Positions 1,696 through 42,700 of a stretch of DNA of 48,009 bases are shown here, piece after piece. The notes under the pieces are model-generated. The model was not told the origin of the DNA and did no database searches. It saw only the letters and a program-made list of their open reading frames with translations. A program made the position numbers and the translations under genes. The stretch covers positions 1 to 48,009 of the forward strand of contig RBNJ01000040.1 of assembly GCA_003990765.1 (NCBI GenBank). The letters run 5' to 3'. Origin of the DNA: Jimgerdemannia flammicorona (taxonomy: Eukaryota). Numbering within the stretch: position 1 is the first letter of the stretch; the number at the start of each line of letters is the position of its first letter.

Positions 1696-4600
1696 ATGTC
1701 ACCAATTGATCCTAATCATATCCACCATGTTGCCATCTATCCCCCGATTGGTGTCGCCCGCGTTGGTAACAGCACGTTCGAGCGGGAAGACGAAGGATGG
1801 TACTATGCTTCCGAAGCACCCGGAGTGCTGGAAACACCCAAAGGTGGTTATAAAGACATCCATGGTCGCGTCAAACGCCAGGTGAGCTTCGCTTTTCGCC
1901 GCCCGAAAACTGTATATACGTCCCTAAATTCTGCTAAATATCAAATCACCCTTTTTGTAATTATAGGCCGCCAAATTCAGGGTGTACGCGTTCGACGCGC
2001 ACCACCGCGCCATCGGCGAGCTGAATAAAACCTCGGGCTACACTATCGACTGGGCCGTCCATGTCGCCAACAAGAAGGGGGCCACGTATGCCTTCGCGGG
2101 CAGGTACCAGCCACAGTACGAACTGCGCAATCCGAAGGTCCAGGCACGTGTCGTTCTGAGATCCAGGCGGTCGACGCAATCTACGCTTACAATTTACTAA
2201 TATGGTTACTTTATACCACAGGCTCAGAATATCGTTGACGAGCGCACAGATCTCATCATCGACCCTGGGGAGAAAAAGGTCAGGGGCTCCAACCATAGTC
2301 GGGTCGAGCTTAACGGCGAGTTCAAGGGGAGCCAGGACAAGGCCAAATCGGTTTACCTCGGCGAGATATTCACCGACGCCGAGGGCCGTCTGGTGTTTCT
2401 TGCCGGCAGGGGCGATGCCATGAGCATTGATCCCGGCAATCCCGACAACATCATCCAAAGCGACTTCAATAACGTGGATTGGTACGACGATACATCCGAC
2501 GGGACAGTCAGGGCCTTCGTGACGCATAACAATACTGGTAAAAAGTAAGTGTTGATTTATATCGTCATGCCCTCAGAACATATCAGACGCTTCTGGAGTC
2601 ATGTGCATAGATTTCAAGAATATTCTGTCTTGCAAATGTACTCACTTTTTAAACCCGCATCAACCTACAGATTCAAGTTGGAGAATGACAGCTGGGTGCT
2701 TGGATCCCCACCAAAGTTCGGTAGCTCCATTTATCCCCCCACCTCCCTCTACGACGTCATCGAGGATGCCAACCAAAAGAAGCAGTATGGCACCTCCGGC
2801 TCCAACTACTCCATACCCGAGGTCCAGTATTACCGGGACATCGAGCCTCTGCTGCTCCGCCCCGTCCTTATATCGTGGGTCAACGCAAATGCCAACTTCG
2901 TCCACGGCGTCGAGGGCCGTGGCTACTTCCTCTCGGACGATTGGCGCCAGAAGCTGTCCGACAATACCGATGACGCCAAGATCTACCGCCAGTCTGTTTT
3001 CGGTCGCATTCGATTCCCGGAGGTGCCCGAATACCAGATCGCCCGAACAGGCCAAGCCTCAGGGTACTTTATGCCCAAGCTATCTGGTGACGGCGGCTAC
3101 ACAACCCGTGGGGACCCACAGACCTGGGTGTCGCTGACTCAGCTGCAGTACGAGCGATTGAGGAAGTGGGCGAACGGGGAGTTCAAGACCGACTATCATC
3201 CACCAAAGTACACAAGGATTGAAGATTACCCGATCCACGAACAGCCAGGTTTGTGTCGCTCACACCCCGGTCCCCCACCCCCCACCCCCCACCCGATTAC
3301 ATTATACAAGTATTTAGTATTAACATCACCTCTCAAACATAGATAAGCTCACGGAGGCAGCCATCGAGTGGGTCATCGGTGCCCCCCTCTATCCCGGCAT
3401 CGAAGTCACCTGGAACTCGGAAGATCCCGACACCTTTCAGAACCCCAAAATTAAGCACGCTGCCTTCCGCTACAGTACCAAATTTAAACCCGGCGATATC
3501 AGCATGTCCATGTCATTGCCGTGGCAGTCGGACTTCTATGAGTGCCAGGCTCACTGGTGGCCTTCGACGCGGCCGGACGACGTGGTCCCTGAGGCTGAAT
3601 ACAAAGCCATCAAGGATAAGGTTCCCCTCGACGAAATCGCCGCAAAGCTGAACGATAAGCGTGTCAGCTGGGACCGAGGCCTGAGCCAGAGCTACCACCA
3701 AGGTGGCTACGGCGGTAACACGGACATGGCGAAGAAGTGGCACCAGCTCGGGTTTGTTGTTCCCGTCGAAGCAGGCGATCGAAATCCCGTGTTTGTCGAG
3801 GTGCAGCGTTCGCCGGGTATGCCGGATCAAGGGCCCGACTACGATCCTGCTGTCCCGTTCTTCATTAGCTCCGTGATAGACACAAAGGAAAAGCTTCAGC
3901 AACACCTGCAGCTTGCTTTGCGAGTTGAGCTCTCCACTATCCCGTACTATCTGTACAGCATGTACTCAATCGACCCTAAGGAGGATGAGGATGCCGCCGA
4001 TGACCACCTCGGACGGAAGGACGCGCAGGAGGCAGCACGGGTGGCCAGGTTTATAATTAAGGGTGTCGTATCGGAGGAAATGCTGCATTTGAGCCTCGCG
4101 GGCAATGTCTTGTTGGCAGTAGGGGGACAGCCAAAGCTCTATGACGAGAATGTGATTCCCACGTTCCCTGGGACGCTTCCTTACAGAGTGCCCCCCCTGC
4201 CGCTTAACCTTCGTGCCGCGACGGAAAAGCAGTTAGAGGCCTTCATTACGGTAAGCCAAAGAGCACGGATCTAATCAATGCCCGTTTTCCTTGCGGCCCT
4301 TGTGTGGCAACGGATGGATTCTATCGTCTCTGACCATGCCAAATACCTTCACTCAGCTCGAGGAACCAGAGCTCATATGTCGCACCAAACAAAACGACTC
4401 AGGGGAGGAGAAGTACCGCACAATCGGCGAGTTCTACCAATCCATCGAGGAAGCTCTTCAGCCGATCTTCGACAAAGACCCTACCCTGTTCGCCAATCCT
4501 CGCCCCAAATGCCAGTTCGCACCTGAAAAGCATGAGTATTCGCCCCGGGTTCCCGATGCTGGCGGTCTTGTCGTTGTCGAGGACGTCAAGTCGGCCATCG

Positions 4601-5430
4601 CGGCGCTCACGACCATCGTCAGAGAGGGCGAGGGTTCACCCCTCAATCACGGGACTGAGCATCTCGATGAGGCACTACATCATAGATACCGTCAGGAATT
4701 GAGCCGAGCCAAAGAAAATCAAAAGTTGGGTACTGCCCCGGGGCTGAGCGAATACGATGACGATAAGAAACTGGAGCTATCGCATTACGCGACATTCATT
4801 CACTTGAAGAAGAAGCTTAAAACCAAAAAGCACCTGTGGACAGTCTTTCCTGTGCCAGAAAACCCTCAATCGAGCCAATACCAGGACGAGAAGATACGGA
4901 CAGTATGTGACATATCATATTTGTCGTTGCTTATCGTTCAACAAACTGGCAATTAATGTCTTGCTTTTTTCTTCTCTCTGCGACAGGTTTCCCTCGCCTT
5001 CGATGCGGCTTACTGCTACCTCCTTATGGTACATATATTATTTATTCACTTTGGCATGTGCAAATGGAGTTTCTGCTAATGACATTACCGCATTTTTTCA
5101 ACCCAGACCATTGAGACGCTCTGGACTGTGCCCGATCCTGTGGAGCGGCAAAAGATTGTCTACGGATCCATGTATGGGACAATGATGGGCGTCATGGCTC
5201 CGCTTGCCGAGTTCCTGGTCCGGCAGCCTGTGGGGCAGAATCAACATGCCGCGCCCTGCTTCCAATACTATCAATTCACTACGTCGACACCTAAGACGGA
5301 GTTGCAGACCTTGATCCAGCGAGCTCTCGACCTATATACACAGGCAAACGCACAAAATCCGGCCAGTCAACTGACAGTGATCCTCACTGCCGTTGAAAAT
5401 TTGTATTCAATTACATATGCTACTGTATAA
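1696..5430 (+). CDS. LodA/GoxA-family CTQ quinoprotein oxidase fused to a C-terminal ferritin-like (VioB/RebD-type) domain; 8 exons, ~1027 aa
   Basis: Exons 1696-1881, 1967-2143 (or 2137), 2222-2544, 2671-3248, 3343-4250, 4357-4902, 4987-5028 and 5107-5430 join in frame (3084 nt); all acceptors are AG and all donors GT except a possible GC at 2144. LodA motifs: IYPPIGVARVGNS, KRQ|AAKFRVY, VHVANKK, LIIDPG, YLGEIFTDAEGRL, WYDDTSDG, MPKLSGD, QYERLRKWANGEF, LYPGIEVTW, PGDISMSMSLPWQSDFYEC, WWPSTRPDDV, WHQLGFV. Ferritin-like motifs: VELSTIPYYLYSMYSI, EEMLH, LEEP, TIGEFY, REGEG, ELSHY. Confidence 0.92.
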
Positions 5431-15458: not shown

Positions 15459-16911
15459 CTATCTGCTACTGGAAATCTCTGGAAATAGATTTGCCATTAC
15501 TTTTGTTTGAGCTAAATCAAACAGCATCAGACTATTGTACAATCTGATACTAGTATCTACCTTATACTCATTAATAAGATACATTATAAGATATATGTTA
15601 TTAGATTGTACTGTAGTTTCTAGTGGTATTTTACCCAACTTATTCCTTGCATTCACATCTGCACCAGCCTCTATAAGGATTCAGGCAATTACAATCCTAT
15701 CTGCCTCAGTATATCTCATATAATTTTCATATATGATATATAGAGGGGTAAATTCACTTGATAGTGTCCTTGCATTAACATCAGCACCATGATTGATAAG
15801 TATTTCAACAAAGACAAATAAACCTCAAGTAGCTGCCTCATGCAATAGAGTTATATCTCTCTACTATTCATTGACATCAATACCAAACTCAGTCACTATA
15901 ATCTTGAATATATTGAGGCTGCCTCTACATATATTCCCAAATAAGTCCTTCTTGTACAGCCCCAACCTCATTGTAGAGTATTTGCATTATCTCAGGGTGT
16001 CTTTTATATATTGCCAGCTATAATGCTATTTTATTTAATGAATTCTAGATTTCAGTATTAGTATGGAATTAAGCATAGAGTATTCACACAACCTCAGAGT
16101 AATTGCTCTCTACTGCAACATGCAGTAGTGTTATTTTATCATATCTCTGCAGATTAATATTGGCCTTGAGATCATGATAAAGATCCCAACTAGTTAGAGA
16201 TCTCCTAGTAAAGTAGCTTCATGGAGCAGTGTCTAATGATTATTGTAAATCACAACCCCATCAGCTAAGTATTTTCTGATGACTACCCTGGGGTTGAATT
16301 TCTATCTGACCAGCCTTTCAATAAGATATGAGAGCCTTTCTATCATAGAATTAACTGCTAGTTTATCAACAGTAGATAGCTTTATGACTGGTTCATACAC
16401 TTCTTGCAGCTTATTGGCCAGATTGATACCAACATCCAAAGAAGTGGCAGCACTATGTGGGTGAGTAGTATTGGCTAGTATCTTTTGGTGTTTCATAGTA
16501 GTAGATACCTTCATATATTCACTAGAAGAGGTGGTGGTATCTTGTAGATAGATAGTAATAGCAGATGTTCTTTTACATTTGAGTATAGGTACTTTTATAT
16601 ATTCACTAGAAGAGGTGGTAGTATCTTATAGATAGGCAGTAATAGCAGATGCTCTTTTGTATTTGGATGCAGGTACTTTCATACATTCACTAGAAGAGGT
16701 AGTGGTATTTTGTGGATAGACAGTAATGATAGATGCTCATTTATATTTGGGTGCTAAGATGGCAACATCATGTCAACAGATAGTAATGGGAAATATTTCT
16801 TTATGTTTGGGAGCTCCTTATATTTACTTGTACTTGATATCATGAAATCAGATAGCTGATATGGTGAAATTATCAGTTGATCCTGAATATATCAGATTTT
16901 GTTGTTATTGT
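15459..16911 (-). pseudogene. 3' part of a long ankyrin-repeat pseudogene
   Basis: Decayed ankyrin repeats (GADVNARNKLGKIPLETTV, LLHEATLLGDL, KITLLHVAVE). The 16.1-16.3 kb module matches the modules at 24.2-25.8 kb. Confidence 0.7.
16500..16810. repeat. 84-bp (28-codon) tandem repeat within the ankyrin gene
   Basis: ttcactagaagagg recurs at ~16518, 16602 and 16686. Confidence 0.8.
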
Positions 16912-17024
16912 TAGTGCTCCAAATGAGTCAATTTGAATCAAATCCAGATTCGATTCATCACATAATGGTTTGATCTGAATCTCAAATCCAAAGCCATCCA
17001 AATCAACTTGGATTAATCTGAATT

Positions 17025-17280
17025 ACCCCATCTGAATCACCTCATCTGAATCACCCATCTGAATCACCCCATCTGAACCACCCCATCCAAACCACTCAAT
17101 CCGAATCACTCAATCTGAATCACTCAATCTGAATTACTCAATCCAAATCACTCAATCCAAATCCTCCAATTTGAATCCTCCAATTCAAATCCTCTAATTC
17201 AAATCCTCTAATTTGAATTCTTCAATCTGAATCCTCATCCAAATCCTTTAACTGAATCCTCCAATCTGAATCCTCCACAT
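17025..17280 (+). repeat. 14-bp subterminal tandem array of the hAT element
   Basis: Repeated units such as atctgaatcacccc, atccgaatcactca and atttgaatcctcca. Confidence 0.8.
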
Positions 17281-17349
17281 GACTCATATGCTGGACATGT
17301 CCACATACACAATACACACACATGCAAACATACACATGCACATGCAAAG

Positions 17350-20300
17350 ATGCAAACACACATGTCAACAGATCAGTCTTCAACAGTTCACAGTACTGAT
17401 GATACTTCAAGTCAAACATCCCTGATAGTTCCACACCTTCCATGCAATCCTCACTCCGAAATCTGGCAACTAGTGCTCCGAACGAGTCAATCTGGATGGG
17501 ATTCGGATGGATTCGAATCAACCATTGTTTTGATTTCCAAATTAGACAATTAAATGTTTACATCAATAACTCGATTAATAATCATCCAAATTTGATGATT
17601 TTGGTGTCATTTGAAAGCCCTTAATAAGGCCTTTCTAACGATACCAAGAACATTAAAATCGGATTACGCGTTGCCGAGATATTAAATTTCCAAAATCGGC
17701 AAATCGAAGAATTTCCAAAATCGGCGATTCAGACGGTTTCCTTCATAACTCAGCAACGCATAATCCTATTTCAATGTTCTTGGTATCATTAGATAGGCCT
17801 TATTAAGGGCTTTCAAATGACACCAAGATCATCAAATTTGGATGATTATTCATCAAGTTATTGATGTAAACATTTAATTGTCTAATTTGGAAATCAAAAC
17901 AATGGTTGATTCATGGGATTTGAATCCCATCCGAGTTGATCTGGATGGGATTCAATCCAAATCAATCCGAATCCAATCCGGATTAAATTGACTCATTAGG
18001 AGCACTACTGGCAACATTGTGCTAAGATAAGAGATGATGTTGTTTGTAATTATTACAGGTAAAAAATTAAGACATACCTATTGATATAACTGACACTTTT
18101 GTTTAACACACACATGATACTGTTTCATTCACCCCTATAAACTGCATCAGCCAGAAGTTCAAAATGCTTGATGGTACAACTTTGAATATGTATTGACATA
18201 TAAAAGACAAGCACTCTGACAAAATCAAAAAGAACATAGAGATAAAAAAAATTGACATCCAAGCTGTGGTGGGTATATTTATCTGATTGCCTGACCATTT
18301 CTGTACCAATAACCCCATTTAATCAAAAATATTTAGCCATACTCTTTGGCAGAATTTTGAAATCGGCTCATTCACTGGATTATATGTACAGATCAGCCTT
18401 TCACAACCATTGAGAGTGATCAATTGCATAGTATCTTTGACCTTCTCAAGCATGATTTATATTTGCTAAGTGCTGATACTATTTGCAAAGATGTCCTGGA
18501 GGCCTATAGGAAGGAGCATGACAATCTCTGCCAGATACTTCAGATAAAATAAGGGCAGTACCATGACCTTTGCAAGCTGAATTATATATATTTTTTTATA
18601 AAGAGCTCACCAATGTAATCTTACATTCAATAAGTAGAATTCAGCAGACAAAATTTCATTTACGATTGACACATGGACATCCCCCAATGTAATTTCATTT
18701 CTGGGCATTACTAGTTATTGGATTGATCTTGATTGGTAGCTTAAATCTCTCACCCTTGACTTTGTCAAACTTGCTGGCCCTCATTCTGGAGACAATATCA
18801 CAGATGCTTTTATTAGTTATATCTGGGAGCTTGGGATCACAACTAAGGTAAAAAAGGGAGACTTGCTGTCAGGTTGGCATTTTGAGAGAGGTTCTAAAAC
18901 AAAACAGATTTTATTGGTTATTTATTTTTGCATAAATTTGCTGACTGAATATTTCATGTACAGATTTTGGCCATTATGACAGACAATGCTACAAATAACT
19001 CAATATTTTTCCAAGTTTTAGCAGCCAGCCTCAAACAGGAAAATGTAGCCTTTGGTGCAGAAAGCTGCCATGTGCAATATCAGGCCCACATACTGAACCT
19101 TACTATTCAGGACTATCTTATGCATGTAGACAAAACATCCGAGAGAGGAGGGGCCCTAAGTATAATTTTCAAGCTATGCAAACTAGTTGTATCAGTCCAA
19201 TTGTCTTTACAATGATAAGACAAATTTGCTACACAGTATAGGGCAATAAGTTTAGCCCTAAAAGAGCTTATATTGGACATCTGTATACATTGGAACTCAA
19301 CATTTATAATAATCTAGCACATGCTGGAGTTTGCTGTGGTACGCATCCTTTTTTTTCTTTGATTGGCTGAAGCAACTTGTTTCAGATAATTGAAGATTTT
19401 TTTTTTTTAAAAAAAAAAAACCAAAAAAAAGCCAATAGATTCAATGGTGGCTGCTGACAAGGAAATACAGGATAAGGCTCTAGGTGAAAGTGAGTGGGAC
19501 TTACTTAGAAATGTTGTCAGAGTTTTGGAAGTAAGTGGTGATTGCTCTGGCTCCATACTTGTTTTGTCTGCCTCCACACAATGCAATATCTCACTACATA
19601 TAACTGCTAGTGTTTGGATGATTGTATGAAGGATATAGTCAAATAAACGACCTCAACAATAAGCTCTGTAATACCAGTATACAACCTTCTGATTGACTGG
19701 CTAGAGGACAAGCTCAAGGACAGGCTGGAGGGTTGTAGTGATTTATAGTTAAGCCCAGATCAGAGAGACACTATGGAGGTTGCTCTAAGCAAGCTCAGAA
19801 AATACTACTCCAAAACAGATACTGCCATATACTCAATCAGTACAGGTATGTTGGCATGTAGCCATTGCCCCTTCCAAAACAGAGAAACCACCACAAAAAC
19901 TCACTCTCTTTTCTCTAAACAGTACTGGACCCATGCTTAAAGCTACAATATCATAAAGATCAGGGCTGGGAGCAGCACTTCATTGAGAGAACCAAGCAGG
20001 CTGTAATCAAAGTATACCAGAAAAACTATGTGCTACCACAAGGTTCTGACCAAAGTCCAGACAAATATGCTGAAGGATCCCTCCTGTCTCACATTTACTT
20101 CAGCAGAAAGAGGAAGAGGGAGCTGTCAGTAAAAGAGCTGCTGTCAATAAACAAACTTACCATTTATCTTACCAGTGACCACATGATCCTGCTAGAGGGT
20201 ACAGAGGTGCTCAACTAGTGGAAGGTGGGTTATCAGACAGGCATTGGGCCAATTTAACCCACTAATCTAACCACTGCTCTACCCACTGAGACATGCAGCT

Positions 20301-20490
20301 ATATTAAATAGACTTCTCCAGCCTGTATGGTATGGCTCAGGACTACCTGGCAATTTCTGCCTCCAGCACTCTTGTCGAGCAGGTATTCTCAGGTGGGGTA
20401 GACCTTGTTGCCCCAAAGAGGTGTGTGCTAAATGCTGAGACAATCTAGGTATATATGTGTCTGAAGTCTTGGTGGAGCTCAGGCTGCTAA
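17350..20490 (+). pseudogene. intron-containing hAT transposase with BED finger (decayed, interrupted by a MITE)
   Basis: SEIWQH..CNY / GTTLNMY*HIKDKH (BED finger); ISFTIDTWTS; IMTDNATNN; QAHILNL; LILDICIHWNST; KLRKYY; LDP; AQDYLAISASSTLVEQVFS (dimerisation domain with the catalytic Glu). Confidence 0.88.
17471..18007. mobile_element. non-autonomous hAT MITE (foldback), copy 1
   Basis: TIR TAGTGCTCCGAACGAGTCAAT / ATTGACTCATTAGGAGCACTA; perfect 8-bp TSD ctggcaac; ~165-bp internal inverted arms. Confidence 0.93.
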
Positions 20491-20589
20491 AATTCAGCAG
20501 GTCCTGGGGATTTATGGATAAGTTGGTTGGCCTTGTAGAATAATTAATATCTTTCAAAAATAAAAAGGAAAAAAAACCTGAGGACTTGG

Positions 20590-21350
20590 TCCGGAGTTTG
20601 CAGCCCAAGTGGGGCAGTGGTCAGTGGGGTTGGTGGCAGTGAAGGAAGCATACAAAATTTGTGGCCCTCTGCCAGCAGTAAGGGGCAGCCCCAAGCTGTC
20701 AGTACCTGAGTTGGTGGGTGGGTTGGTGGGCATGGGTCGGTGGAGAGAGTATGCAAAATTTGCAGCCCTCCACTGGCAGCAAGAGGCAGCCCCAAGCTGC
20801 AAGTGTCCAGGACAGGGAGTTAGGGGAGGGGGGGGGTAGGCAGAGGCAGTACACAAAATTTGCAGCCCTTCACCAGTAGTGAGGAGCAGCCCCAAGCTGT
20901 TAGTGGTCAGGATCAGTGGGCAGGGTTGGTTGGTGGAGTCAGTGGATATGAGGTTGGCAGAGAGAGCATGCAAAATTTACAGCCCTCCACCAGCAGCAAG
21001 GGGCAGCCCCAAGCTGCAAGTGTCCAGGACAGGTGGAACTCCCCCCAGTAGCCTGTGTCCAGGCCAGGGGTCAGCAGGGTTGGCAGAGGGAGTGTGCAAA
21101 ATTTGCAGCCCTCTGCCAGCAGCATAGAGGCAGCCCCAAGCCACCAAGGAGTCCGAGTCCAGGTTGGAGAGTGCTTCTGGCAGTCAGAGGGTGCTTCTGA
21201 CAGTCAGAGGGTACTTCTGGTAGTTGGAGGGTGCTTCTGGCAGTTGGAGGACATTTCCAGTAGTTGGAGGGTGCTTCTGGTGGTCAGAGGGTGCTTCTGG
21301 TGGTCAAAGGACATTTCTGGCAGTTGGAGGGTACTTCCGGCAGTCAAAGT
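20590..21350. repeat. GC-rich minisatellites (~115-bp and 21-bp units) inside the hAT
   Basis: About five copies of caaaatttgcagccct..ccagcagcaaggggcagccccaagctg, then gagggtgcttctggcagtt 21-mers at ~21165-21345. Confidence 0.85.
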
Positions 21351-21549
21351 CCACCACAGATTCAGGCCCCATCACTGGTTCAGATCCTATGGGCACCCTG
21401 GCCCTGTGCTACAGCACCGCACTGGCAGCACTACAAGAGCAGGGCCAAGGGGCTGGTAGGGTCCAGCATAATAGCTAAACTAGTGCTACAGAAGAGGTGC
21501 CAGGCTGCCAGCCCAACCTGCACAAAATGACTGCTGGACCCTCACAAAA

Positions 21550-21632
21550 GATTGCCTAACCCTCATGAAAGATTGCCTAACCCTCATGAAAGATTACCTA
21601 ACCCTTATGAAAGATTGTCTAACCCTTACAAA
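21550..21632. repeat. 21-bp tandem repeat, 4 copies
   Basis: gattgcctaaccctcatgaaa units. Confidence 0.85.
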
Positions 21633-23650
21633 AACTGCTCCACCCACTGGTCCCAGGCCTTGATGAGTCTGTCATCTATTGTGAGTGTGACAACTATTGT
21701 GTCCAAGCTCTCCTCGAAGATGATAGTACCATGGTGGTTGTGTGTTGGAATAGGATGGCCATGTTGGCCACAAATGAGACCCCAAAACCATAGGTGAGGT
21801 CATATCAGACTCTGCCACTATTCTTCCAGGTTGGGCCCTTCCTTTCTGGAACATAGAACATTACTAGGGTGACATTGTTGTCTGTGTGTGTGGGCAGAGA
21901 AATATTGTGCTCAATATATTCTGATGTGATATAAGTATACAGTTGGGTGAACCCTTGGCCCAGGACCTTATACTGCCAGGCTGTGCTAGTGAATGCCTGC
22001 CCTTGGTCTAGCCCTGGGAGCCCCAGCTTAGAAACCTGCCAGACAGATAGCATCTGGTCAGTCCTTTTTGCATATGGGGGGGCAGAAATCTCCCAGGCTG
22101 CAGCATCCAAATAAAGCAGAGCTCCTCACCTTATACTGTATGCTAAATTGTGCCAAGAATGTACATACAGCTGTGCCAAGATCACCACCAAGCTGATCTG
22201 CTATATGCTCTACCAATCTGCTCAAAGAACTCCAGATCATAGCCACCATTGCCACATAGGCCATGTTGTGCTCATGTATAGTTTGCTCTTTGACGGCACT
22301 TTTAAAGTTCCAGTAGAGGTATAGAATCTTGTGCATCTCTGGAATTGTATCAAAAAAGAGTATGTTGGTGAAGAGTGTGATTATCTGGAGAGGAGCAAAA
22401 AAAAGGGAGACGAGTGCAGGAGATTTTGGAACTCCAGAACCCCTCCTTTACCAATGTTGCAGTATACCCAATTCCCATCCAAACCCCCCCTCCTTGCTTT
22501 TTTCACCCCCTCTTTCCTGCTACCCTGTATTTGATGCAATCCTTGCAAATCTTATTGATGTGGCAGCAAAGCTCATCACTATAGAGATTCCTTACCACCA
22601 TTGCAACTATCTCTCCATGTTCATTAATAATGATATAGTTCTCTTCATCATTGGTTACTCCTGCTGGCCAATAGACCTCTTGGTTAAGAACGATTAGCTC
22701 TGATTCAAATATAGACCCCCAAGCCTTGATGATGATGCTGGTACTGCTTATGCTGAACATCTTGCCCTCAAATTTCTCTATTTGATCAGATGCCAGATGT
22801 GGTTGAACTCGGATAATTTTGAATTCTCCTTTCCAATGGAACTGAGCCCTAATCTGAGGGGCTGAGGTAAGTATGTGGATGGGTTACATACAGATGGGTT
22901 GTATGTGGACAGGTTGTATATAGATGGGTTGTATGTGGGCAGGTTGCATGCAGATGGGTTGTATGCAGATGGGTTGCATGCAGGTGTGGGTGTTTTTTAG
23001 GGGGAGACTATATAAAAAATGAAGTTAAATAAAACATGGAGATGGGAATTTCAGAAAAAGAGTATGAGTGAGTGAGTGAGTGAGTTGTATACTGATGAGT
23101 TGCATACCAATAAGTTGCATAAGTTGCATGAGTTGTACAAGATTGCTCATGAAGGCTTGCTTCTGTTCCTTTTGAAACCTCTGCCATGTAATGCATTGAC
23201 TCAACAGCTTAGCCACCAAAGGCATACCCCTCAATGTCTGCCAGGCTTTCTTCATCTTGACCAGATATTGCAAATAAAGTCAGCAGATCTTACCATAGAG
23301 CTGTAAACCCTAAGAAAAGCATGAGGTGAATTGAGTTGTACTGGGAAAATTTAAATAAATATAAGTAAATAAGTGGTGGCAAAGTGAGCAACCTACATTA
23401 CTATCAGCTGCTACAAAAAGGCTGCCACATATATAGTTGTGAGGTCTGTGAATTCCGAGGTCCAAAGGGCTACTGTGAGTTATTGCCAGAATTCTCCCTC
23501 ATCCCCACCATCACCACTGCCATCACCATTGCCATTGCCCCTTTGGCTCTCAATGAGCAGCTTGTATACTGCCCATATAAGAAAGAATCTAACATTGTCA
23601 GCAGAGAGTACATTTTCACCTCGAATACTCTCTCTTTTGATGATCATTAT
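21626..23650 (-). pseudogene. intron-containing hAT cargo gene; putative TET/JBP-like 2OG-Fe(II) dioxygenase (decayed)
   Basis: Reconstructed ...IIINEHGEIVAMVV... FSIQYK|VSKLGLPG (phase-0 GT-AG intron ~22128-22036) ...LPTHTDNN (HxD at 21888-21880) VTLVMFYV...YGFGVSFVANMAILF(1-nt frameshift)PTHNHHGT...IVVTLTIDDRL, stop at 21628-21626. The 5' limit is approximate. Confidence 0.55.
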
Positions 23651-24003
23651 AGGGTAAAAAATGAGTAGACTGGACCAATGTATGATTAAGGGCTGCTGTT
23701 TTGTTTGCTCATGATGCAGTAGAAAAGAAAGAACAAAGAAAAAGAACAAAGAAAGAACAAAAGAAGAGAGAGAACAAAAGAAAGAGTGATATCACCAAAG
23801 TGTAGTAGAAAAAAAAAACAAGAGCAAAAATGAACAAAAAAAAGAGTGATGTCACCAAAGATTTCAATCTGGATGGATCAATCTAGATCAATCCAGATCA
23901 ATCTGGATCAGATCATAAGACCAATCTAAGTTGATTCAAATCCATCACATGATAAATCTGAATCAAATCTCATCTGGATCAACTCCATCTGTTTAGAGCA
24001 CTA

Positions 24004-26755
24004 GTTGTTGTAGCCAATCTATTCTTACTCAGAAATGATAATCATCTATAGTATCATTAGATAATTTAAGGAATATGTAATAAAAGTCACTATGTTCTTT
24101 CATAAATAAGATATATATCATGATTGATAGAAGTACTCCATTATAGAACACTATTTATTAATATCAGTACCACACTCCAGCACCAGGACCTTAAATGTAT
24201 CAAGGTTATTGTGTAGCATTGCAGAGATGAGTACGGAGTTGATATCTTCCTATATAGCTCCAAATAAATTGCAGAGCATCCAAATTATTTCATAATGTCC
24301 TCCATCTACTACCAGTTGTAATGCTGTTTAGTTTCTCCAATCTAGGATCCTAATATCAGTATTTAATCTTGTACAAAGCATTCTTACAACCTCTGGATGA
24401 TTTTTCACCACTGTAATATATAGTGATGTTATTCTACCATATCCCTGCAGATTAATATTAGCCTTGAGATAAGTAACAAATATCTTAATGAGTTTAAGAT
24501 CTCTCAATATGATAGCACTATAGAGCAGTGTCTAATATTTGTAGGTCACTATTCGACCTACCATATATTCCATAATAACTATTCTGGGGTCCAATAACCA
24601 CTGGGTCAGCATTTTGGTAAGATATGGAAGTCTTTAAATTATAGTATTAATAGCAAGTTCATTATCAATAGATACCTCTACAACTGGTTCTTGCAATTCA
24701 GTAGTAAGGACAGAATGTTTTTGAATATATAATTGGGCTATATCATTATCATATTGACTAGTGTTGGCACCACAATCATTTACTAAGACTCTGAATATAT
24801 TGTAGTCATTATTTAGTATAGTAGAGATGAGTGTCGAATTGATATCCTCTTGTGTAGCTCCAAACAGATTATATAGCATACAAATTATCTGGTGGTGTCT
24901 TTTATCTACTGCCAATTGTAGTACTGTTTGATTGTACCAATCTCTGATTGTAATATCAGCACCAAACCTAGCATAGAGCATTCTTACAACTTCAGAATAA
25001 TTGTACTCTACTACAATATACAGTGCTGTAATTTTATCATATCTCTATAGGTTGACATTAGACCTGAGACCAATAATAAGATCCTCTATAAGGTTGAGAT
25101 CTCCCAGTAGGGTAGCTTCATGTAGTACTGTCCAGCATTCATTATAGTACATAATTTCATAAATCTCATATCTCATAATAATTGCCTCAGGATGTTTAAT
25201 TAAATTCTGTTTATATCTCCAGTTCAGCCATTCTATAAAATATAGAACTCTTTCAACTATTGTATTGTAGGTAGTTTTGGAATATATGCATACTACTCCT
25301 CTACTTCTAAATATTTGGGTAAAGTCATCACTTTTGTTTAGACTGGCTGCTATATATCATAATACTATACCATTACTATGTTCAATGAGATCAATACTAC
25401 AATTATATATCAGAACTGTGAATATATTGAGATCATTATTTTAAATAGCTGAGATGAGTGCAGAATTGATTTCTTTCTGTACAGCCCTAAATATTTTACA
25501 GAGTATTTTAATTATCTCATAGTATTCTCTATCTATTGCCAGCTGTAGTATTGTTTGATATTACTGATCTCTAATTTCTATATCAGCACTATATATAGTA
25601 TAGAGCATTTCTACAGCCTCAGGGTAATTGTTCTCTACTGCAACATATAGTGGTATCATTTCATTATCTTGATAGTTGATATTAGCCTTGAGTTCTACAA
25701 CCAAAATGATAATAAGTTTGAGGTCTCCTAGTTTAGTGGCCTCATGGAGCAGTATCCACTCATTATTACATATAATAACTCTACCAGCCATATATTCTCC
25801 AATGACTATTTTGGGATCTAATTGCCACTGGAGTTTGTTAATTATGATATCAATTATATATTTACTTATATTGATAATTAGCAGCTCAGTGATATTATGG
25901 TCAGATTGATCATGAGTAGCTATATCTTATAGGTAGGTATCAGTCATAGATATACCATCATTATCAATCAATAGCTCTGCAATAGGTTCTGATACCTCTT
26001 GCTGCTACTGGTTAGGTCAATGAATTCAATCATTTGGAAGAGTGGTAATATTCCATGGAGGAGATATAATAGTAGACACCTCAGCTATAGTATTGATTGC
26101 CCATTTATCTGTAACTATAATATTGGTTTCCTATTTACCTTTGACTATAGTATTGGTTACCCATTTACCCTCAATTATAGCATTGGTTATATTTTCATCC
26201 TCAATCATAGTATTGGTTTCCCATTCATCCTTGACTATAGTATTAGTTGCCTATTTATCCTTATTTGCAACATATAACTCTGTGGCCTGTTTATATATTT
26301 CTGGTATGTTGGCCCAATTAATCTTGATATTTAAAGACATAGCTACATCATACAGATTGATAGTAATGACTGGCAGTTCAATCATAGTATCAATCATTAG
26401 TTCACCATTATTACTAATAGGTGGTTTATGTATATTAGTTATAATATCAGATAGAGTAGTATCAATCATCAGTTTATCCTCAGTAACTATAGATGGCTCT
26501 GTATTCTGTTGAGGTTCTGTATTCTGTATGTATAGATTCAGAGGGATAGGTAACTCTATGGCCTATACAATATTTAAAGATGTGGCTATATCATATAGGT
26601 CAATTAGTTTACCATTATTACTAATAAGTGGTTCATATATATTGGTTATAATATCAGAGCAATCTGTAGAAGTATAGTAGTGGTGGATATTTCAATCATT
26701 GCATCAATCATCAGTTTATTCTCAGTAACAATGGGTGGCTCTATATTCTATACAT
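24004..26755 (-). pseudogene. middle part of the ankyrin-repeat pseudogene (three ~0.6-kb ankyrin modules plus low-complexity repeats)
   Basis: LLHEATKLGDLKLIIILVVELKANINYQD, PLYVAVENNYPEAVEML, GADITIRDWYNQTVLQLAV recur at ~24.2-24.6, 24.8-25.2 and 25.4-25.8 kb. Confidence 0.8.
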
Positions 26756-28907: not shown

Positions 28908-31900
28908 GATTAATTTGCTGGTTGGAGGTCCTTTGAGGTGTCTGTGAGAGGGTATCTGCATTGGCATTGGTTCTTCCTGGGTGGTGTACAATGGTTACAT
29001 CATATGCTTGTAACTTCATGATCCATCTGGCATAGATTCCTTTGGGTTGCTCAGTGGTCAGTAGCCAAGTGAGGGCTGAGTGGTCTATCTGGATGGTGAA
29101 GTGTCTTTTGGCAAGATAGTAGTGGAACTTTTCTACAGCCCAGATAACTGTGAGACACTCCAACTTGTATGATTCATATTCTTTTTCAGCTCCTCAGGTT
29201 CCATGGCTGAGATATGCAATGACATACTCTACTTTGTCTTTCTTTTGAGTTAGGACTGCTCCTAGTCCTTGTGCACTTGCATCTATCTGAAGGATGAATT
29301 CTTGGGTCCAGTCTGGTCTTCTAAGGATGGGTGCTTGGGTCAGTCTGACCTTGAGCTCATCAAATACTTGTTGCTGGCTGTCTGTCCATTGGAATTTGAT
29401 GTCCTTTTTGTTCAGTTCATAGATTGGGCTTGCAATGTTGGAAAATCCCCTAATAAATCTGCAATAGTAGGAGGCAAGTTCCATGAAGGCTTGGGCTTCA
29501 GTAATAGTAGTGGGTCTTGGATATGCTGCTACTGCTTGTATCTTGAGGGGGTCTATATGTGTTCCATCTCAGTTGATGATATGAACCAGGTAGGAGATCT
29601 CAATTTCCACAAACTTGCATTTCTTGGGCTTGATGTAAAGACCATATTCTCTCAGCTTCTCTATTATCTGCTGAATATGCTGCAGATGTTCTTCAGCTGT
29701 CTTGCTGTAGATGATTATATCATCTATGTAAACCATCATCCATCTTCCTATATCATAGTGGAAGATTTTGTTCATCATTTGCTAGAAGCTTACTGGTGCA
29801 TTGCACATTCCGAATAGCATTTGCAGATAGACATAGGTTCTGTCTGGAGTGATGAAAGCTGACTTTTCACTTACTGCTTCTGTGAGACCAATTTGATAGA
29901 ATCCTGAATATAAGTCCAAAGTGCTGTAATACTGTGCTTCATCTCCTAGGGTTATGAGAATATCACTGATAAGGGGCAGTGATTGGCAATCCTTCTTAGT
30001 GACCAGGTTGAGTTTCCTATAATTGGTGCAGAGCCTTGGGGCAAATTCTCCCGGCTTGCTTCCTTTCTTCAGGACTAGTATAACTGGTGAAGCCCAAGGG
30101 CTGCTGGCTTCTTTGATGATACTAGCTTCTTCCATTTGCTTGATTTCTTCTCTAAGCCATTCATGGTAGGCTGGCAGGATGGGTCTTGCCTTCTGATAAA
30201 TTGGTTTGGTGTCTTCTGTGTCTACATCATGATAGCAGTGTGGGGTCTTTCCTTTGATATCTCTGAAATCTGTAGCAAGGACATCCTCAAATTTATAGAG
30301 TATCTTCTTGAGTTTCTTCTTGAATGAAAACTTATTTCTAATGGTATAGCTATGCTTGTTTGTAGTTTCCTCCTTCTTGTATTCCAGTTTGGTAATCTTG
30401 GTACTGGTGAATACTCCTCTTCTAGTAGATCCAAATTCTTTTCTTTCTCTTCCTGTTTCTTTCAGTTTCTTAACTTCTATGATCTTTGGTTGTAGAATCG
30501 GAAAGATCAATATCTGCACCAATCAGTTCTTCTTCTTGATTGGGAATGGGATTGTAGGGTTGTGATTCCTGATGATGAGTAGGATTTCTCCAGTATAGTC
30601 TGAGTTAATGACTCCTCCTTCGATGGTAATTTTGCTTTTAGCCAGACTGCTTCTTGTCTTGAGAATTCTGACATGGTCCTTTGGTATGGTCATCTCCAGG
30701 CCAGTTGCAAGTAGGGTAGTTGTCTGGGGCTCCAGTACAGTTTCTTCTACAGTGGTGATGTCCATTCTGGCTGCATTTTCTGACTTGTATTCTGGTAGAA
30801 CTGCATCTGGGTAGATCTTCCAAATTTTGACCTTGATTTCTTCTTTATCATCACTGTCCTCCAGGAGGACTGGTGGTTCATCATCTTCTTCCTCCTGTTC
30901 TTTGGCCTGTTTCTCAAGAGCCTTCTGTCTTCTTTGTTGGTAAATCTCTTTGATTTTGCCAGTACACTTGTAGCAATCATTGATATGCTCCATATAGTAC
31001 ATTTGGATCCCATGGGGGCAGACTCCTTGTAGTGCATATCCTTCTGTGATCTTCTTACACCATTCTTCTTCACTCATCCATCCAACTTTCTTCTTCTTTT
31101 TCTGAGTGGTCACCATGTAAGCTTCCTCTTGTTCACTCCCTTCTTCCTCCATATTGGGCAGGACTCCCTTGTTGATGTTGATGGGAATTTGTATCTTCTG
31201 TCCTTGGTAGATGATCTGCATCTTCTGTGCATTGAGGTCAATTATTGCTCTGGCTTTGTGAAGTCATTGATTGCTGATGAGGATGTCATAGTTGATTGTA
31301 TTGGTTACAATCACATCTACTGGGATGGTTGATCCTCTAAGCTTGATGGAAACATCTTGGATTTTTCCCAGTAGAGTAGCTCTTGTACCATCTGCTGTGA
31401 TGAATACCAATTTGGTTACTTCTTCAACTTTCCAGCCTAGGCAGTCTGCTGTTTTCTTGCTGAGGAGACATCCTTCTGCTCCAGTATCAATGATGGCTTC
31501 AAATATTCTGTCCTCAATTTGACAGGTTGTATAGGCAGAGGTCTTGCAGTTGTCTTTGCTTTCTTTTCCTAAGTCTTCTTGAACATTGTTGGCCTTGGTT
31601 ATCTTCCAACCTTGCTTCTTGGTTGTTTCAGCAAGTTCAAACCTCATTTGCTGTCTGAATGTTGGGATTTCTGTGAGCTGACTAAAGGTTACATTGACCT
31701 TTTGTTGGCTGAGGTCCTTGAAAATATCATACTTAAAGGTCTTGGTCTTGTGAAGCTTCTTTTCTTTTTCTCCCTCACTGGCTGGAGTGGTTCCTCAGAT
31801 GATATCTTGAACTACTTGTTCCAGCTCTATATCTTGATTCATTTCTTCAGCTTGACTTTCTGTAGCGGTTTCTATCTGTTTTTCCACCGGGTTCTTCTTA

Positions 31901-35947: not shown

Positions 35948-38165
35948 TATCACGTAGTGATTACCGAGTCCTTCAAATATACCAGATTCTCTTCAAGATA
36001 TATCTCTTAGACTAACTCAAGTTTGTTATAAGCAAGTTCTTATTGGAGTGCCTTCCCAAGGTCTTATAGTCCTCAAACTTCTTATCTTTAACTGTCTTGT
36101 TATCTCTTATATTGCTTACAAGGAAGTATGTGTATTGTACTGAGAAGACTGACTTTATTTCAAAGAAAATAAGAGGGATATTTATACAAAATATAATTCA
36201 ATGGTTGCTAAGATATAAAGCTAAATATAAATTCTAATAACTAAAACTACTAAGTTCCAGGGTTGGCACTAATGGTTATACAGGTTCAGGATGCTGGTAT
36301 AATTCAGTATCACATTAGAATACCAGTGCTGGAATAATTTCATGTCACCTCAGAATACCAGTGCTGGCATTATTCAGTGTTACATAAGAATACCGGTGCT
36401 GGCATTATCCAGTGTTACATGAGAATACTGGTGCTGGCATTATCCAGTATAACAAAGAACTTAGAGTAGAAAGTTCAGGATCATGGGGGCTTCATCATCA
36501 TTATCATCATCACTAAAGGAGATAAGATCCACAAATTCATCATTTTCACATACTTCAATATTGCGTGGGATGACATCATTACTGATGACATCATCACATT
36601 CAGTGGGGAAATCGGGGGCTCTCCAATCTATGAGGTTCTCTTCTACAAAATAAGGGACAAATGTGAGGTCTTAGAGAGATCTAACCCGGATGCTTGGGCC
36701 TTGAAATAATGAGATCAATCCTTGTAGGAATTGGTCTGGGTTGTCTTGGAGGATGGGGTGCTAGAAGTCTTCTACTTCATCACTATTGAGGGTAATAGTG
36801 GACTGGGCTTCTGTAGCCACCCTGGCTTCTAGTGCATTGATATGATGGGATGATAGATCTCTGAAATCTGAGACTCTAATATACTTTAAGTTGGGGATCG
36901 ACTATGGTGCATGCCTGAAGATCTGATGGATCTTCTTAGCTATCCTTATTTTGCATATATCCATGGGAGTGGCATCTTGTAGCTCTTGAGTGCTGGCTTG
37001 TGGGAACTCCCAGCAGAGGAGGTTTCCTATTTCATACTTCTGCCACATTTGGAGGCATTCGGTAGCAATGGTGATCCTTGTTTCCATTTCATGGCAGTAG
37101 AGGATAAAGTGATAGGGATCTACAGTACCCAGGTTGACACTAGGAGTCCTTCTTGAGCAGGTCCCCATGGCTCTTCTGATGTCTTGGAACATTCTTTCTT
37201 CAACCAAGGTGCCTTGGTGGTTCTTTGATCTTGAGGTTTGGTAGGCAGCAGGCATTTTATTTGTGGTAAGTCTTTGGGCTATTTTGGAATCGGTGGGTCT
37301 TATTATTTGCTGCTACTGCGGTTCCTTGATCCTTCTTTTATATTCTTCAGGATGCTTGTACTGTGGTCACAGTGACTCATATAGTGCTCTGAATGAGTCA
37401 ATCCGGATGGGATTCGGATGGATTTGAATCCCATCCAGATCAACTCAGATTGGATTCGAATCCCATCCAGATCAACTCGGATTGGATTCGAATCCCATCT
37501 GGATCAACTCGGATTAGATTCGAATCCCATCGGGATGGATTCGAATCAACCATTGTTTTGATTTCCAAATTGGACAATTAAATGTTTACATCAATAACTC
37601 AATGAATAATCATCCAAATTTGATGATCTTGGTGTCATTTGAACGCCCTTAATAAGGCCTTTCTAATGATATCAAGAACATTAAAATCAGATTACGCGTT
37701 GCCGAGATATTAAGGAAACTGTTCTATTTGACGAAATTTCCAAAATCGGCAAATCGAAGAATTTCCAAAATCGGCGATTCAGACGGGTTCCTTCATAACT
37801 CAGCAACGCATGATCGGATTTCAATGTTCTTGGTATCATTAGATAGGCCTTATTAAGGGGTTTCAAATGACATCAAGATCATCAAATTTGGATGATTATT
37901 CATTGAGTTATTGATGTAAACATTTAATTATCTACATAATTTGGAAATCAAAACAATGGTTGATTCGAATCCATCTGGATGGGATTCAATCCGAATCAAT
38001 CCGAATCCAATCCAGATTAAATTGACTTGTTAGGAGCACTAGACTCATAGTTGATCATCATTGCTCATCTCGTATGCTGTATAATCTTCTTGTGCTCCGA
38101 TCTGGTGGCTTGCAAGGAAAGGCTGTCTCCTGTGCTGATGTCATCATTCTGTGGTCACCATTACA
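35948..38165 (-). repeat. 3' LTR of Gypsy B (interrupted by a hAT MITE)
   Basis: Colinear with 43853-45367 after removing 37382-38049. Confidence 0.93.
37382..38041. mobile_element. non-autonomous hAT MITE (foldback), copy 2
   Basis: Same TIRs and arms as 17471-18007; perfect 8-bp TSD gactcata; the empty site is visible in the other B LTR copies. Confidence 0.95.
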
Positions 38166-39726: not shown

Positions 39727-42700
39727 GTTGAATAGTCTTGATGGGAGTGTTTCGGGGTGTCCTTGAGAGTACATCAGTATTGGTGTTGGTCTTTCCTGAG
39801 TAGTGCTTGATAGTATAGTCATACTCTTGCAGCCTGTAGATCTATCTGACATATATTCCTTTGGGGTTCAGAGTATGGAATAGCCAGGTAAGAGCAGAAT
39901 AGTCTGTTTGAATAGTGAAGTATTTCCCAGCTAGGTAGTAGTGGAACTTGTCTACTGCCCAAACTACTGCTAAGCATTCGAGCTTGTATGACTCATAGTT
40001 CTGTTTTGCTCTGCTAGTACCTCAGCTTGCATAGGAGATGACATATTCATGTCCATCTTTCTTCTGAGCTAGGACTGCTCCAAGTCCTATAGTACTTGCA
40101 TCTGTTTGCAGGATGAATTCTAGGTTCCAGTCTGGTCTTCTGAGGATAGGTGCTTGAGTCAACCTGGTCTTGAGTTTATTGAAGGTCTCTTGGCGCTCCT
40201 TGGTTCATTCAAATTTGGTTTCCTTCTTCAGTAGCTCATAGATAGGTGCTGCAATGTTAGAGTATCCTTTGATGAATCTTCTGTAGTAGCTGGCCAGTCC
40301 AAGGAAGGCATGGACTTCTGTGGTTGTTCTGGGTCTCAGGTAGGCTGCAACAGCCTCGATCTTCATAGGGTCTATATGGATTCTGGTCTGGTTGATGAGG
40401 TGTCCTAGATAGGCAATTTCTTGAGCTGCAAACTTGCATTTCTTGGGCTTGATGTAGAGGCCATGCTTCTTGAGCTTCTTGAGGGCTAGCTGTATGTGAT
40501 TGACATGTTCCCATGTTGTGTTACTGAAGATGATCACATCATCAACATAGAAAAAGAGCCATTTTCCAATCTTGTTGCTGAAGACTCTGTTCATCATTCA
40601 CTGGAAACTTGCTGGGGCATTGCACATTCCAAATGGTATTCGCAGGTAGATATAGGTGGCATCAGATATGATGAAGGCTGATTTCTCACTGGCATCTTGA
40701 GTGAGACCAATCTGATGGAAGCCTGAGAACAGATCCAAGGTGGTGTAGTATTTGGCTTCGCTTCCAAGGGTGGTAAGGATTTCTTGAATATTTGGCAAGG
40801 GCTGCCTATCCTTCTTGGTGATGGCATTGAGTTTCCTGTAGTCAATGCAGAGTCTTGGCACAAACTCTCCAGGCTTGCTTCCTTTTTTCAGGGCAAGGAC
40901 AATGGGTAAGGCCCAGGGGCTGATAGCTTGCTTGATGATTCCAGCTTCTTCCATTTCCTTGAGTTCTGCTTGCAGCCACTCTCTGTAGGCAGGTGGTATG
41001 GGTCTGGCTTTCTGGTAGATGGGCTTGGTATCATCAGTATCAACTTCATGGTAGTACTTGGGTTCTTGATTGTGGATATCCCTGAAGTCTGTAGCAAGTA
41101 CTTCTTCATTCTGGTGCAGGATCTTGAGAAGTTGTTCCTCTAGGGGAAAGTTTTCTCCAATAGTATATATGTGCTTATTCTGGTCCTTGTCTTTCTTGTG
41201 CTCAAGTTCAGTAGTCTTGGTGGTGGCATAGGCTCCTCTTCCAGTAGATCCAAAGCCTTGTTCTTCTCTCTTGGTCTTGATGAGTTCGATGGCTTCTATG
41301 ATCTTGGGCTTCTTGATTTCGTGGATCAGCATCTGGCCAATCCTGTCATGCTTCATGACTTCAAAGGGGGTGGTGTGGTTGTGATTTATGACTATGAGGA
41401 AGATCTCACCAGTGTAATCAGAGTCAATTACTCCTCCTTCAACTGAGATTTTTCTTTTGGCCAGACTGCTCCTGGTCTTGATAATTCTGGCATGGTTTTC
41501 TGGCAGCTTGACTCCAATTCCAGTATAGTGGTCTGTGGTTCGAGGGTAGCATCTTGAATGCTGGCAAGGTCCATTCCTATAACTCCTTCAGTCTTGTATT
41601 CTGGGATCTTGGCTTCAGGGTGAAACTTCTTAACCTTGAGGGTAATGTCTGATTCTTATTCCTCCTCATCATCACTGTCAGCCTGAAGTTCTGGGGGCTG
41701 GTCATCTTCTTCGGCTTTCCTTTTTGCTTCAGCAGCTTCTTGCTCATATTTCTGTTGGTGGATTTTCCTGACTTCACTGATATAGGACCAGCAGTCATTC
41801 AGGTGTTCAGAGCAGTACATCCTAGTACCATGGGGGCATCTTTCTTAAGGGGCATACCCATCGATGATCTTGTTGTACCACTGCTCATCTGTGAGCTTGG
41901 GTGTCTTGTTCTTGTTCTTGTTCACTGAGTGCATGAAGACTTCTGTGTCCTCTTCATCTTCTTCCTCCATGTCTGGTAGGACTCCTTTATGGACATTGAT
42001 AGAGACTCATACCTTTCTTCCTCTATAGTTGATCTGCATCTTCTGGGCATTGAGATCAATGATGGCCTTGGTCTTGTGAAGCCATTGGTTGCCAATGAGG
42101 ATATCATAGTTGGTGGTGCTTATAACAATCACATCTACTGGGATGGTAGCTCCTCCTATCTTGATGGGGACTTCTCAGATTTTGCCAAGTGGGGTAGCTC
42201 ATGTACTATCTGCTATAACATAGACCATCTTAGTGAACTCTTCAATATCTCATCCTAGGCAGTCAATTACCTTCTTGCTCATAAGGTATCCTCCAGCACC
42301 AGTATTAATGATGGCATCAAAGATACAGTCTTCAATCTGACAGGGGGTATAGGCTGATGTCTTGTGCTGGTCTTCAGATTCTTCACCTGAGTTCTCAGAA
42401 TCTTCCTGTACATTGTGAGCTTCTACAATCTTGTACTCTTGATTCTTGGCAGTCGTTGTAAGTCCTACTCTCAACTGCTGTCTGAAGGTAGGGACTTCAG
42501 CTAGCTGTCCAAAGGTGGCATTGACCTTCTGTTCCTTGAGATCCTTATAGATATCATACTGGTGGATCTTGGTCTTGCACAGCTTCTGTTCCTTCTTGCT
42601 TTCACTTTCTCCTGAGACTGGAGTAGTGCCTTCAATGATTTGGTGGGTAGCTTCATCTAACTCCATGTCTTGATCAATCTCCTCGGGTTGGGTCTTACTT

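Follow-up and report, generated by a model that had tools for sequence, protein, structure and literature searches.

A decayed hAT transposon of Jimgerdemannia flammicorona with a second gene for a putative TET/JBP-like dioxygenase

A stretch of 48,009 nucleotides from the fungus Jimgerdemannia flammicorona (assembly GCA_003990765.1, contig RBNJ01000040.1, positions 1 to 48,009 of the forward strand), referred to as the window, was analysed. One hAT transposon was found to span positions 16912-24003, as defined by its termini, its target site duplication (TSD) and a transposase domain. The element is a canonical, autonomous hAT in an old copy that is now inactive, with an 8-bp TSD and two convergent genes. 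It is read here, with moderate confidence, as a decayed two-gene hAT in which the transposase was accompanied by a divergent, transposon-borne dioxygenase of the TET/JBP kind, nearest to the PE type of these enzymes and with an anti-methylation role. The second gene, located on the minus strand at about 23660-21626 with at least three exons, would encode an Fe(II)-dependent dioxygenase with a double-stranded beta-helix. In intact members of the family the enzyme would bind Fe(II) via H-x-D...H and would oxidise 5-methylcytosine (5mC), or otherwise modify it, on the DNA of the element; such a modification would counter methylation-based silencing and the subsequent C-to-T decay. The fold and the substrate of the enzyme, its kinship to TET/JBP, its action against methylation and the regular place of the gene in this hAT family are inferred. 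Both genes are dead in this copy, the transposase by stop codons and by a miniature inverted-repeat transposable element (MITE) in its first exon, and the dioxygenase gene by a TGA codon and a frameshift.

The left terminal inverted repeat was located at 16912-16934 on the plus strand (TAGTGCTCCAAA...) and the right one at 23981-24003 on the minus strand (...TTTAGAGCACTA). The termini proper, TAGTGCTC from 16912 and GAGCACTA up to 24003, match at 8 of 8 positions and at 11 of 12 when extended; beyond this extension the two termini resemble each other only with gaps. They are flanked by GTTATTGT (16904-16911) and GTTGTTGT (24004-24011), an 8-bp target duplication identical at 7 of 8 positions, and no reading of these flanks fits a duplication of 7 bp. 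Four ends of the TAGTGCTC type are present in the region, at 16912, 17471, 18007 and 24003. The pair 17471/18007 was assigned to a nested MITE of 537 bp (17471-18007), a non-autonomous hAT derivative, because a perfect 8-bp duplication, CTGGCAAC, flanks the pair at 17463-17470 and 18008-18015. Pairings of the four ends other than this one and 16912/24003 were rejected, as they showed no duplication at the flanks. The 23-nt left terminal inverted repeat of the hAT matches the end of the nested MITE at 96%, and a second MITE copy with the same TAGTGCTC ends and a perfect 8-bp TSD, GACTCATA, was located at 37382-38041. Duplications of 8 bp were thus found in all three cases within the TAGTGCTC-ended family (the element and the two MITEs), as hAT elements produce them.

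The transposase pseudogene occupies 17359-20472 on the plus strand, contains several in-frame stops and has its first exon split by the nested MITE. Removal by script of the MITE and one copy of its TSD made the transposase frame continuous across the junction. The Pfam model Dimer_Tnp_hAT (PF05699) matched the open stretch 20308-20448 with 21.7 bits, and when stops were read as X the hAT dimerisation domain scored 30.3 bits (E 3.6e-7, cut-off 21.4) at about 20314-20472. As to an RNase-H-like DDE catalytic core, no Pfam model matched the other pieces of the transposase; by eye, blocks that look typical of hAT were recognised in their translations. The hAT identity of the element and its ends, both proposed in an initial annotation made from the sequence alone, are therefore well founded in the termini, the 8-bp TSD and the dimerisation domain. 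The nested MITE was absent from that account.

The second gene is spliced and convergent with the transposase. Its three resolved exons, at 22883-22524, 22384-22130 and 22053-21626, total about 347 codons. The exon at 22883-22524, whose 5' border is provisional, contains, at 22631-22596, the strand motif of the N-terminus, IINEHGEIVAMV, for which a match was seen in PE-type sequences. It is followed by intron 1 (22523-22385, 139 nt, GT..AG, with a pyrimidine tract), by a middle exon of 85 open codons and by intron 2 (22129-22054, 76 nt, GTGAGG...CTGAC...CAG), and the frame is kept across both of these GT..AG introns. The last exon ends with a stop codon at 21628-21626 and carries the putative iron-binding residues. 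The motif HTD is found at 21888-21880 (H at 21888-21886, D at 21882-21880). HHGT, at 21736-21725, supplies the distal H (21733-21731) and is reached after a frame change, the loss of one nucleotide, at 21744/21743. The initial annotation had announced a spliced gene with an N-terminal strand pair, HTD and a frameshifted HHGT in a decayed copy, and each of these was located as given; a second lesion, an in-frame TGA at 21807-21805, was absent from it. Further exons likely extend up to about 23660. The stretch 22884-23660 on the minus strand holds open stretches, possible upstream exons and introns, together with tandem repeats of 15 and 30 bp, and it is covered by related contigs from the sequencing run described below.

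The HxD piece served as query in an exhaustive HMMER search for relatives of the gene, which covered 1.84 billion representative proteins and gave seven matches. Two of them are single open frames, P0001 (136 aa, 79% identical, E 1.3e-30) and P0005 (134 aa, 48% identical, E 2.3e-6), which hold PTHTDNN...DLHGT uninterrupted in one frame. The elements PTHTDNN, YGF, HGT and D/E-RL..AWD are common to both proteins and to this copy, and the distance from HTD to HGT in P0001 is 50 residues. The triad HxD...H (HTD, HGT) is accordingly present in this copy and in the intact P0001 and P0005; its loss from the family, which the initial annotation had named as a finding that would undo its proposal, was not observed. 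The remaining five matches were dropped as relatives. Three of them (P0002, P0003, P0006) come from bacteria and have repeated discoidin-like domains; their weak matches were summed, lie partly on the intron and miss H and D. The other two (P0004, P0007) are proteins of low complexity or made of repeats. In a word-index search with the alignment A2 at near length, only P0001 and P0005 were recovered out of 316 candidates. Against longer proteins none of 6809 candidates for A2 and none of 39 for the N-terminal exon was significant; an intact homologue of the N-terminal half was not found in these searches, and two metagenome scans gave no relative. If the minus-strand open stretches were chance frames in decayed repeat DNA, the missing Pfam matches and the five spurious matches out of seven would fit. 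This explanation is refuted by the two open homologues (E 1.3e-30 and 2.3e-6), by the preservation of the frame by the introns and by amino-acid changes toward P0001 in the majority of related contigs.

A search of sequencing runs for the dioxygenase-like gene listed one DNA run, X1 (labelled soil metagenome), with a share of 0.05 of the words of the gene, and no RNA run. Contigs from X1, which are short (about 150-210 nt), were compared with positions 21600-23700 at a likeness of at least 80%. The comparison gave 499 contig pieces that covered all 30 bins, with 28 pieces at a likeness of at least 99%, 86 at 95-99%, 227 at 90-95% and 158 below 90%. The gene therefore belongs to a multi-copy family; contigs of this length are uninformative on its linkage to the transposase. 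Transitions accounted for 195 of the 206 places listed by kind of change. At 36 of 40 listed differences this copy has T or A as opposed to C or G in nearly all of the other depth, and 6 of the 40 would restore a CpG, given the present neighbours in this copy. The differences private to this copy were mostly C-to-T or G-to-A, in contexts that are non-CpG as now read. Position 21805 is C in X1 in 237.4 of 246.5 depth (28 contigs), by which TGA becomes TGG, and one contig holds an extra G behind 21743 that would restore the frame. Several of the majority residues in the X1 contigs agree with P0001.

On balance, the dioxygenase-like gene is fairly probably a regular cargo of this hAT family. An unlikely alternative is that the gene is foreign to the family, either as part of another element that inserted here or as a single capture by this copy. 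Such an origin would agree with the single copy seen in its context and with the 1.2-kb repeat-rich spacer between the two genes, and TET genes are described as passing between transposon superfamilies often, with borders that bear no signature sequences (PMC12730594). Against it, no inverted repeats or duplications were seen to bracket the gene, with no separate pair of at least 80% among the 25 longest inverted pairs listed. From the 5' end of the gene to the right terminus is no more than about 350 bp. The two halves of the element have also lost CpG to the same extent (observed/expected ratio 0.07 and 0.07), but this is a level at which every old repeat is saturated.

The CpG observed/expected ratio was 0.07 for the element without the MITE and likewise for the transposase half and the dioxygenase half, compared with 0.95 for a neighbouring gene (2500-5000). 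In most of the remaining 2-kb bins that are rich in repeats the ratio was 0.02-0.12; three exceptions had 0.34-0.42, two of them holding MITEs. The decay of CpG in repeats that the initial annotation had described is thus a property of this window. The MITEs themselves had ratios of 1.14 (17471-18007) and 1.08 (37382-38041), where other repeats of the window are near 0.05. The interior of the MITE at 17471-18007 forms a long palindrome, whose arms of 171 nt are 94% complementary. An explanation for the intact CpG of the MITEs could be protection from methylation, and this was ruled out: the two MITEs are 95.4% alike and CpG transitions make up 8 of their 24 mismatches, which indicates that they are young and not protected. 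This suggests that a source of transposase for the family was active long after the copy at 16912-24003 had died.

The kinship of the dioxygenase-like gene to TET/JBP is considered likely, and the evidence comes from a protein atlas and from published transposon-borne enzymes. Among the feature neighbours of P0001 in the atlas, rank 3 is a basidiomycete cluster named 'Tet-like 2OG-Fe(II) oxygenase' (2OG, 2-oxoglutarate), with a score of 0.91, 178 shared features and PF20515 on 72% of its members. The atlas model of P0001 has a predicted template modelling score (pTM) of 0.59. Its ten listed structural neighbours have TM values by query of 0.54-0.63; seven are clusters of 2OG-Fe(II) oxygenases by name or family, one of them with Tet_JBP on 28% of its members, and three have neither name nor family. 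The neighbours of P0001 in the atlas are mostly basidiomycete.

TET/JBP genes have been reported in 11 lineages of DNA transposons by Kojima (2025, Biology 14:1741; PMC12730594). In Table S1 of that paper, the PE-type row of a Tuber borchii Helitron reads GEIVAMVYRN, compared with GEIVAMVVRN in this copy, and that of a Morchella Helitron reads NYIF...EIVGLV.RN. PE-type rows were found in which the second His stands within [LF]HGT[ST] and in which the last strand reads G[LM]S[FI]VT..RL, compared with GLSLTTDERL in P0005. By eye, the PE-type sequences and this copy run parallel through the middle exon as well. The row counts in Table S1 were 1 for GEIVAMV, 3 for LHGT, 10 for HGTS and 1 for NYIF, and HTDN...TLV was found in two PU-type rows. 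A match of 'APP' to PE rows upstream of HxD was dropped, as it falls in intron 2.

That the transposon took its second gene from the host, as a generic 2OG-Fe(II) oxygenase (prolyl-hydroxylase-like or of another double-stranded beta-helix family) with no TET/JBP kinship and no role on DNA, is rather improbable. The structural neighbours would allow it, since clusters of prolyl 4-hydroxylase-like and 2OG-FeII_Oxy_3/5 proteins lie at TM 0.54-0.63, the same range as the cluster containing Tet_JBP, and the lack of a Pfam Tet_JBP match points the same way. The best named feature neighbour is nevertheless the Tet-like PF20515 cluster, and the transposon-borne PE-type proteins of Table S1 have motifs colinear with those of the gene at the N-terminus, in the middle and at the C-terminus. 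In addition, the family is multi-copy and decayed by transitions, like transposon genes. For a relative of the PE type, a missing Pfam match is itself expected: that type is barely detectable by sequence, and its only ties to TET are an HHpred match, best to CMD1 with an E of 1.4, and the comparison of predicted structures (PMC12730594, section 3.2.3).

A number of results weigh against the reading of the element as a hAT with a TET/JBP-like, anti-methylation cargo. Pfam, including Tet_JBP and all 2OG models, gave no match to P0001 or P0005 at E up to 10, nor to the exon pieces of this copy at E up to 1, so that neither the gene nor its relatives matched the sequence models PF12851 or Tet-like PF20515. 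A sequence search of the PDB with A2 returned nothing at E up to 10, and other queries stayed at chance level (E of at least 0.14). AlphaFold models from alignments of 3 and 4 rows were unusable, with predicted local distance difference test (pLDDT) values of 40.7 and 34.4. The output of the protein atlas is, by its own description, a lead rather than a test. Table S1 of Kojima (2025) was text-searched with 21 short protein motifs, and the comparison of motifs was made by eye and is unscored; 12 of the 21 were absent from the searched text of the supplement, with no match for THTDNN, PTHTD, THTD, DLHGT, YGFGV, GLSLT, HGTAAF, KAWD, MVVRN or NYII. HxE is described as the hallmark of the PE type (PMC12730594, section 3.4), and HTD is found instead in this copy, P0001 and P0005. 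As a single copy is seen with its context, the gene could also have been inserted or captured later, in this copy only. Finally, with a CpG ratio of 0.07 in the element, the cargo, whatever its action, gave this copy no protection. Of the demethylase-like counter-defence proposed in the initial annotation, what stood was a hAT whose second gene bears HxD...H; a statistical match to TET/JBP was not obtained.

The 2OG-binding Arg (R-x-S) after the second His, whose canonical position is taken from TET2, belongs to the same side of the balance. It is absent from this copy, where the initial annotation had called it not evident, and from P0001 and P0005. Since these two intact relatives lack it too, the missing Arg is not a result of decay. 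CMD1 uses vitamin C as co-substrate and forms 5-glyceryl-methylcytosine as product. A fold of the TET/JBP kind that does not produce 5-hydroxymethylcytosine (5hmC), and instead uses another co-substrate or makes another base modification as CMD1 does, is therefore a further explanation, to which a small probability is given. It would account for the absence of the Arg from all three sequences. In most of the PE-type rows of Table S1 that were compared, the aligned canonical place is occupied by Gln, CMD1 is the best HHpred match of the PE type, and activities other than 5mC oxidation are left open for that type (PMC12730594). On the other side, an Arg a few residues past the canonical place is conserved, as D/E-R-L in the three sequences and as S/V-R-L in those PE rows, and this residue could take over the 2OG contact.

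Outside the two genes, the element holds about 19 copies of a AATCTGAATCACTC-like 14-bp tandem repeat in its left subterminal part (17015-17277). The spacer between the transposase and the dioxygenase-like gene (20600-21626) contains internal direct and tandem repeats with units of about 100-200 bp, arrays of 20/60 bp and an array of 21 bp; in its portion 20600-21350, diverged direct repeats of 100-200 bp are accompanied by the 20/60-bp tandem array. Elsewhere in the window, the gene at 2549-4956 on the plus strand is the sole CpG-intact gene (GC 0.53, CpG ratio 0.95). It matches Pfam LodA_C (the C-terminal part of L-lysine epsilon-oxidase) and Ferritin-like in three consecutive frames and is probably spliced. 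Pol frames of long terminal repeat (LTR) retrotransposons were found on the minus strand at 40598-41587 and 30523-31263, with the reverse transcriptase preceded by a dUTPase domain (PF00692, E 7.4e-19), and at least three Gypsy-like copies occupy much of the 48,009 nucleotides.

A transposon with its own TET-like enzyme would be a rare counter-measure of mobile elements to DNA methylation. Contrary to the initial annotation, in which no association with hAT was known, twenty TET-bearing hAT families, named hAT7 for their 7-bp duplications and equipped with PU-type enzymes, are described from six Puccinia species (rust fungi) (PMC12730594). The role proposed there, including for hAT, is to counter methylation and C-to-T hypermutation, and CpG-directed decay of repeats is described for Pucciniomycotina (section 4.2). 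The principle is thus already published, hAT included, and this copy, which is nothing new in kind, is best placed as a further, decayed member among the TET-bearing DNA transposons of fungi. A carrier lineage and an enzyme subtype might be gained from it for the TET genes that hop between transposon superfamilies, and it would be a natural example of a cargo whose carrier underwent CpG decay in spite of it. For a setting of extreme CpG decay, the recorded carriers are hAT7 elements only and the recorded enzymes are all of the PU type. A more specific reading, possible but doubtful, is that of an uncatalogued independent capture, in which a hAT with an 8-bp TSD took up a sister lineage of the PE type that keeps HxD and lacks the Arg, in a fungus with extreme CpG decay. 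The family would in that case still be mobile, as the CpG-intact MITEs and the X1 contigs of at least 99% likeness suggest, and the enzyme might use another co-substrate or make another product. If active copies truly lack the Arg, the family could help to tell the true 2OG-dependent 5mC oxidases among divergent enzymes.

Compared with known systems, the putative enzyme shares the iron triad HxD...H, on a presumed double-stranded beta-helix, with CMD1, CcTET, NgTET and TET2, and differs from them in that no sequence match was obtained at E up to 10. The PU type is approached by HTDN...TLV after the first His, found in two rows, and by being transposon-borne and multi-copy. The PU rows of Table S1 that were compared also hold G.[ML]W..GWRK and, in most cases, R/K-x-G-x-S on the last strand, neither of which is recognisable in this copy, P0001 or P0005.

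The hAT7 elements of Puccinia resemble the present element as fungal hATs with a TET/JBP-like gene beside the transposase and with the same proposed anti-methylation role (PMC12730594). They differ in the TSD, which is 7 bp in hAT7 and 8 bp here, and in the terminus, which starts CAACGG... in hAT7-1_PGr, the only hAT7 terminus compared, and TAGTGCTC here; in the supplement, whose DNA cells were covered for their opening 400 letters, no row starting with TAGTGCTC was found. In three named hAT7 families the gene precedes the transposase and runs in its direction, whereas here it is downstream and convergent. The enzymes differ as well, being PU-type in hAT7 and PE-like with HxD in this element. 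The closest likeness is to the PE type: in the unscored comparison the motifs are colinear at the N-terminal strand pair, the second His and the last strand, the canonical place holds no conserved Arg in either, and both are too divergent for ordinary sequence models. The differences from the PE type are HTD here in place of HxE, and a hAT as the carrier. A hAT with a TET-like cargo is already in print, and the possible novelty lies in the pairing of an 8-bp-TSD hAT with a PE-like enzyme bearing HxD in place of HxE.

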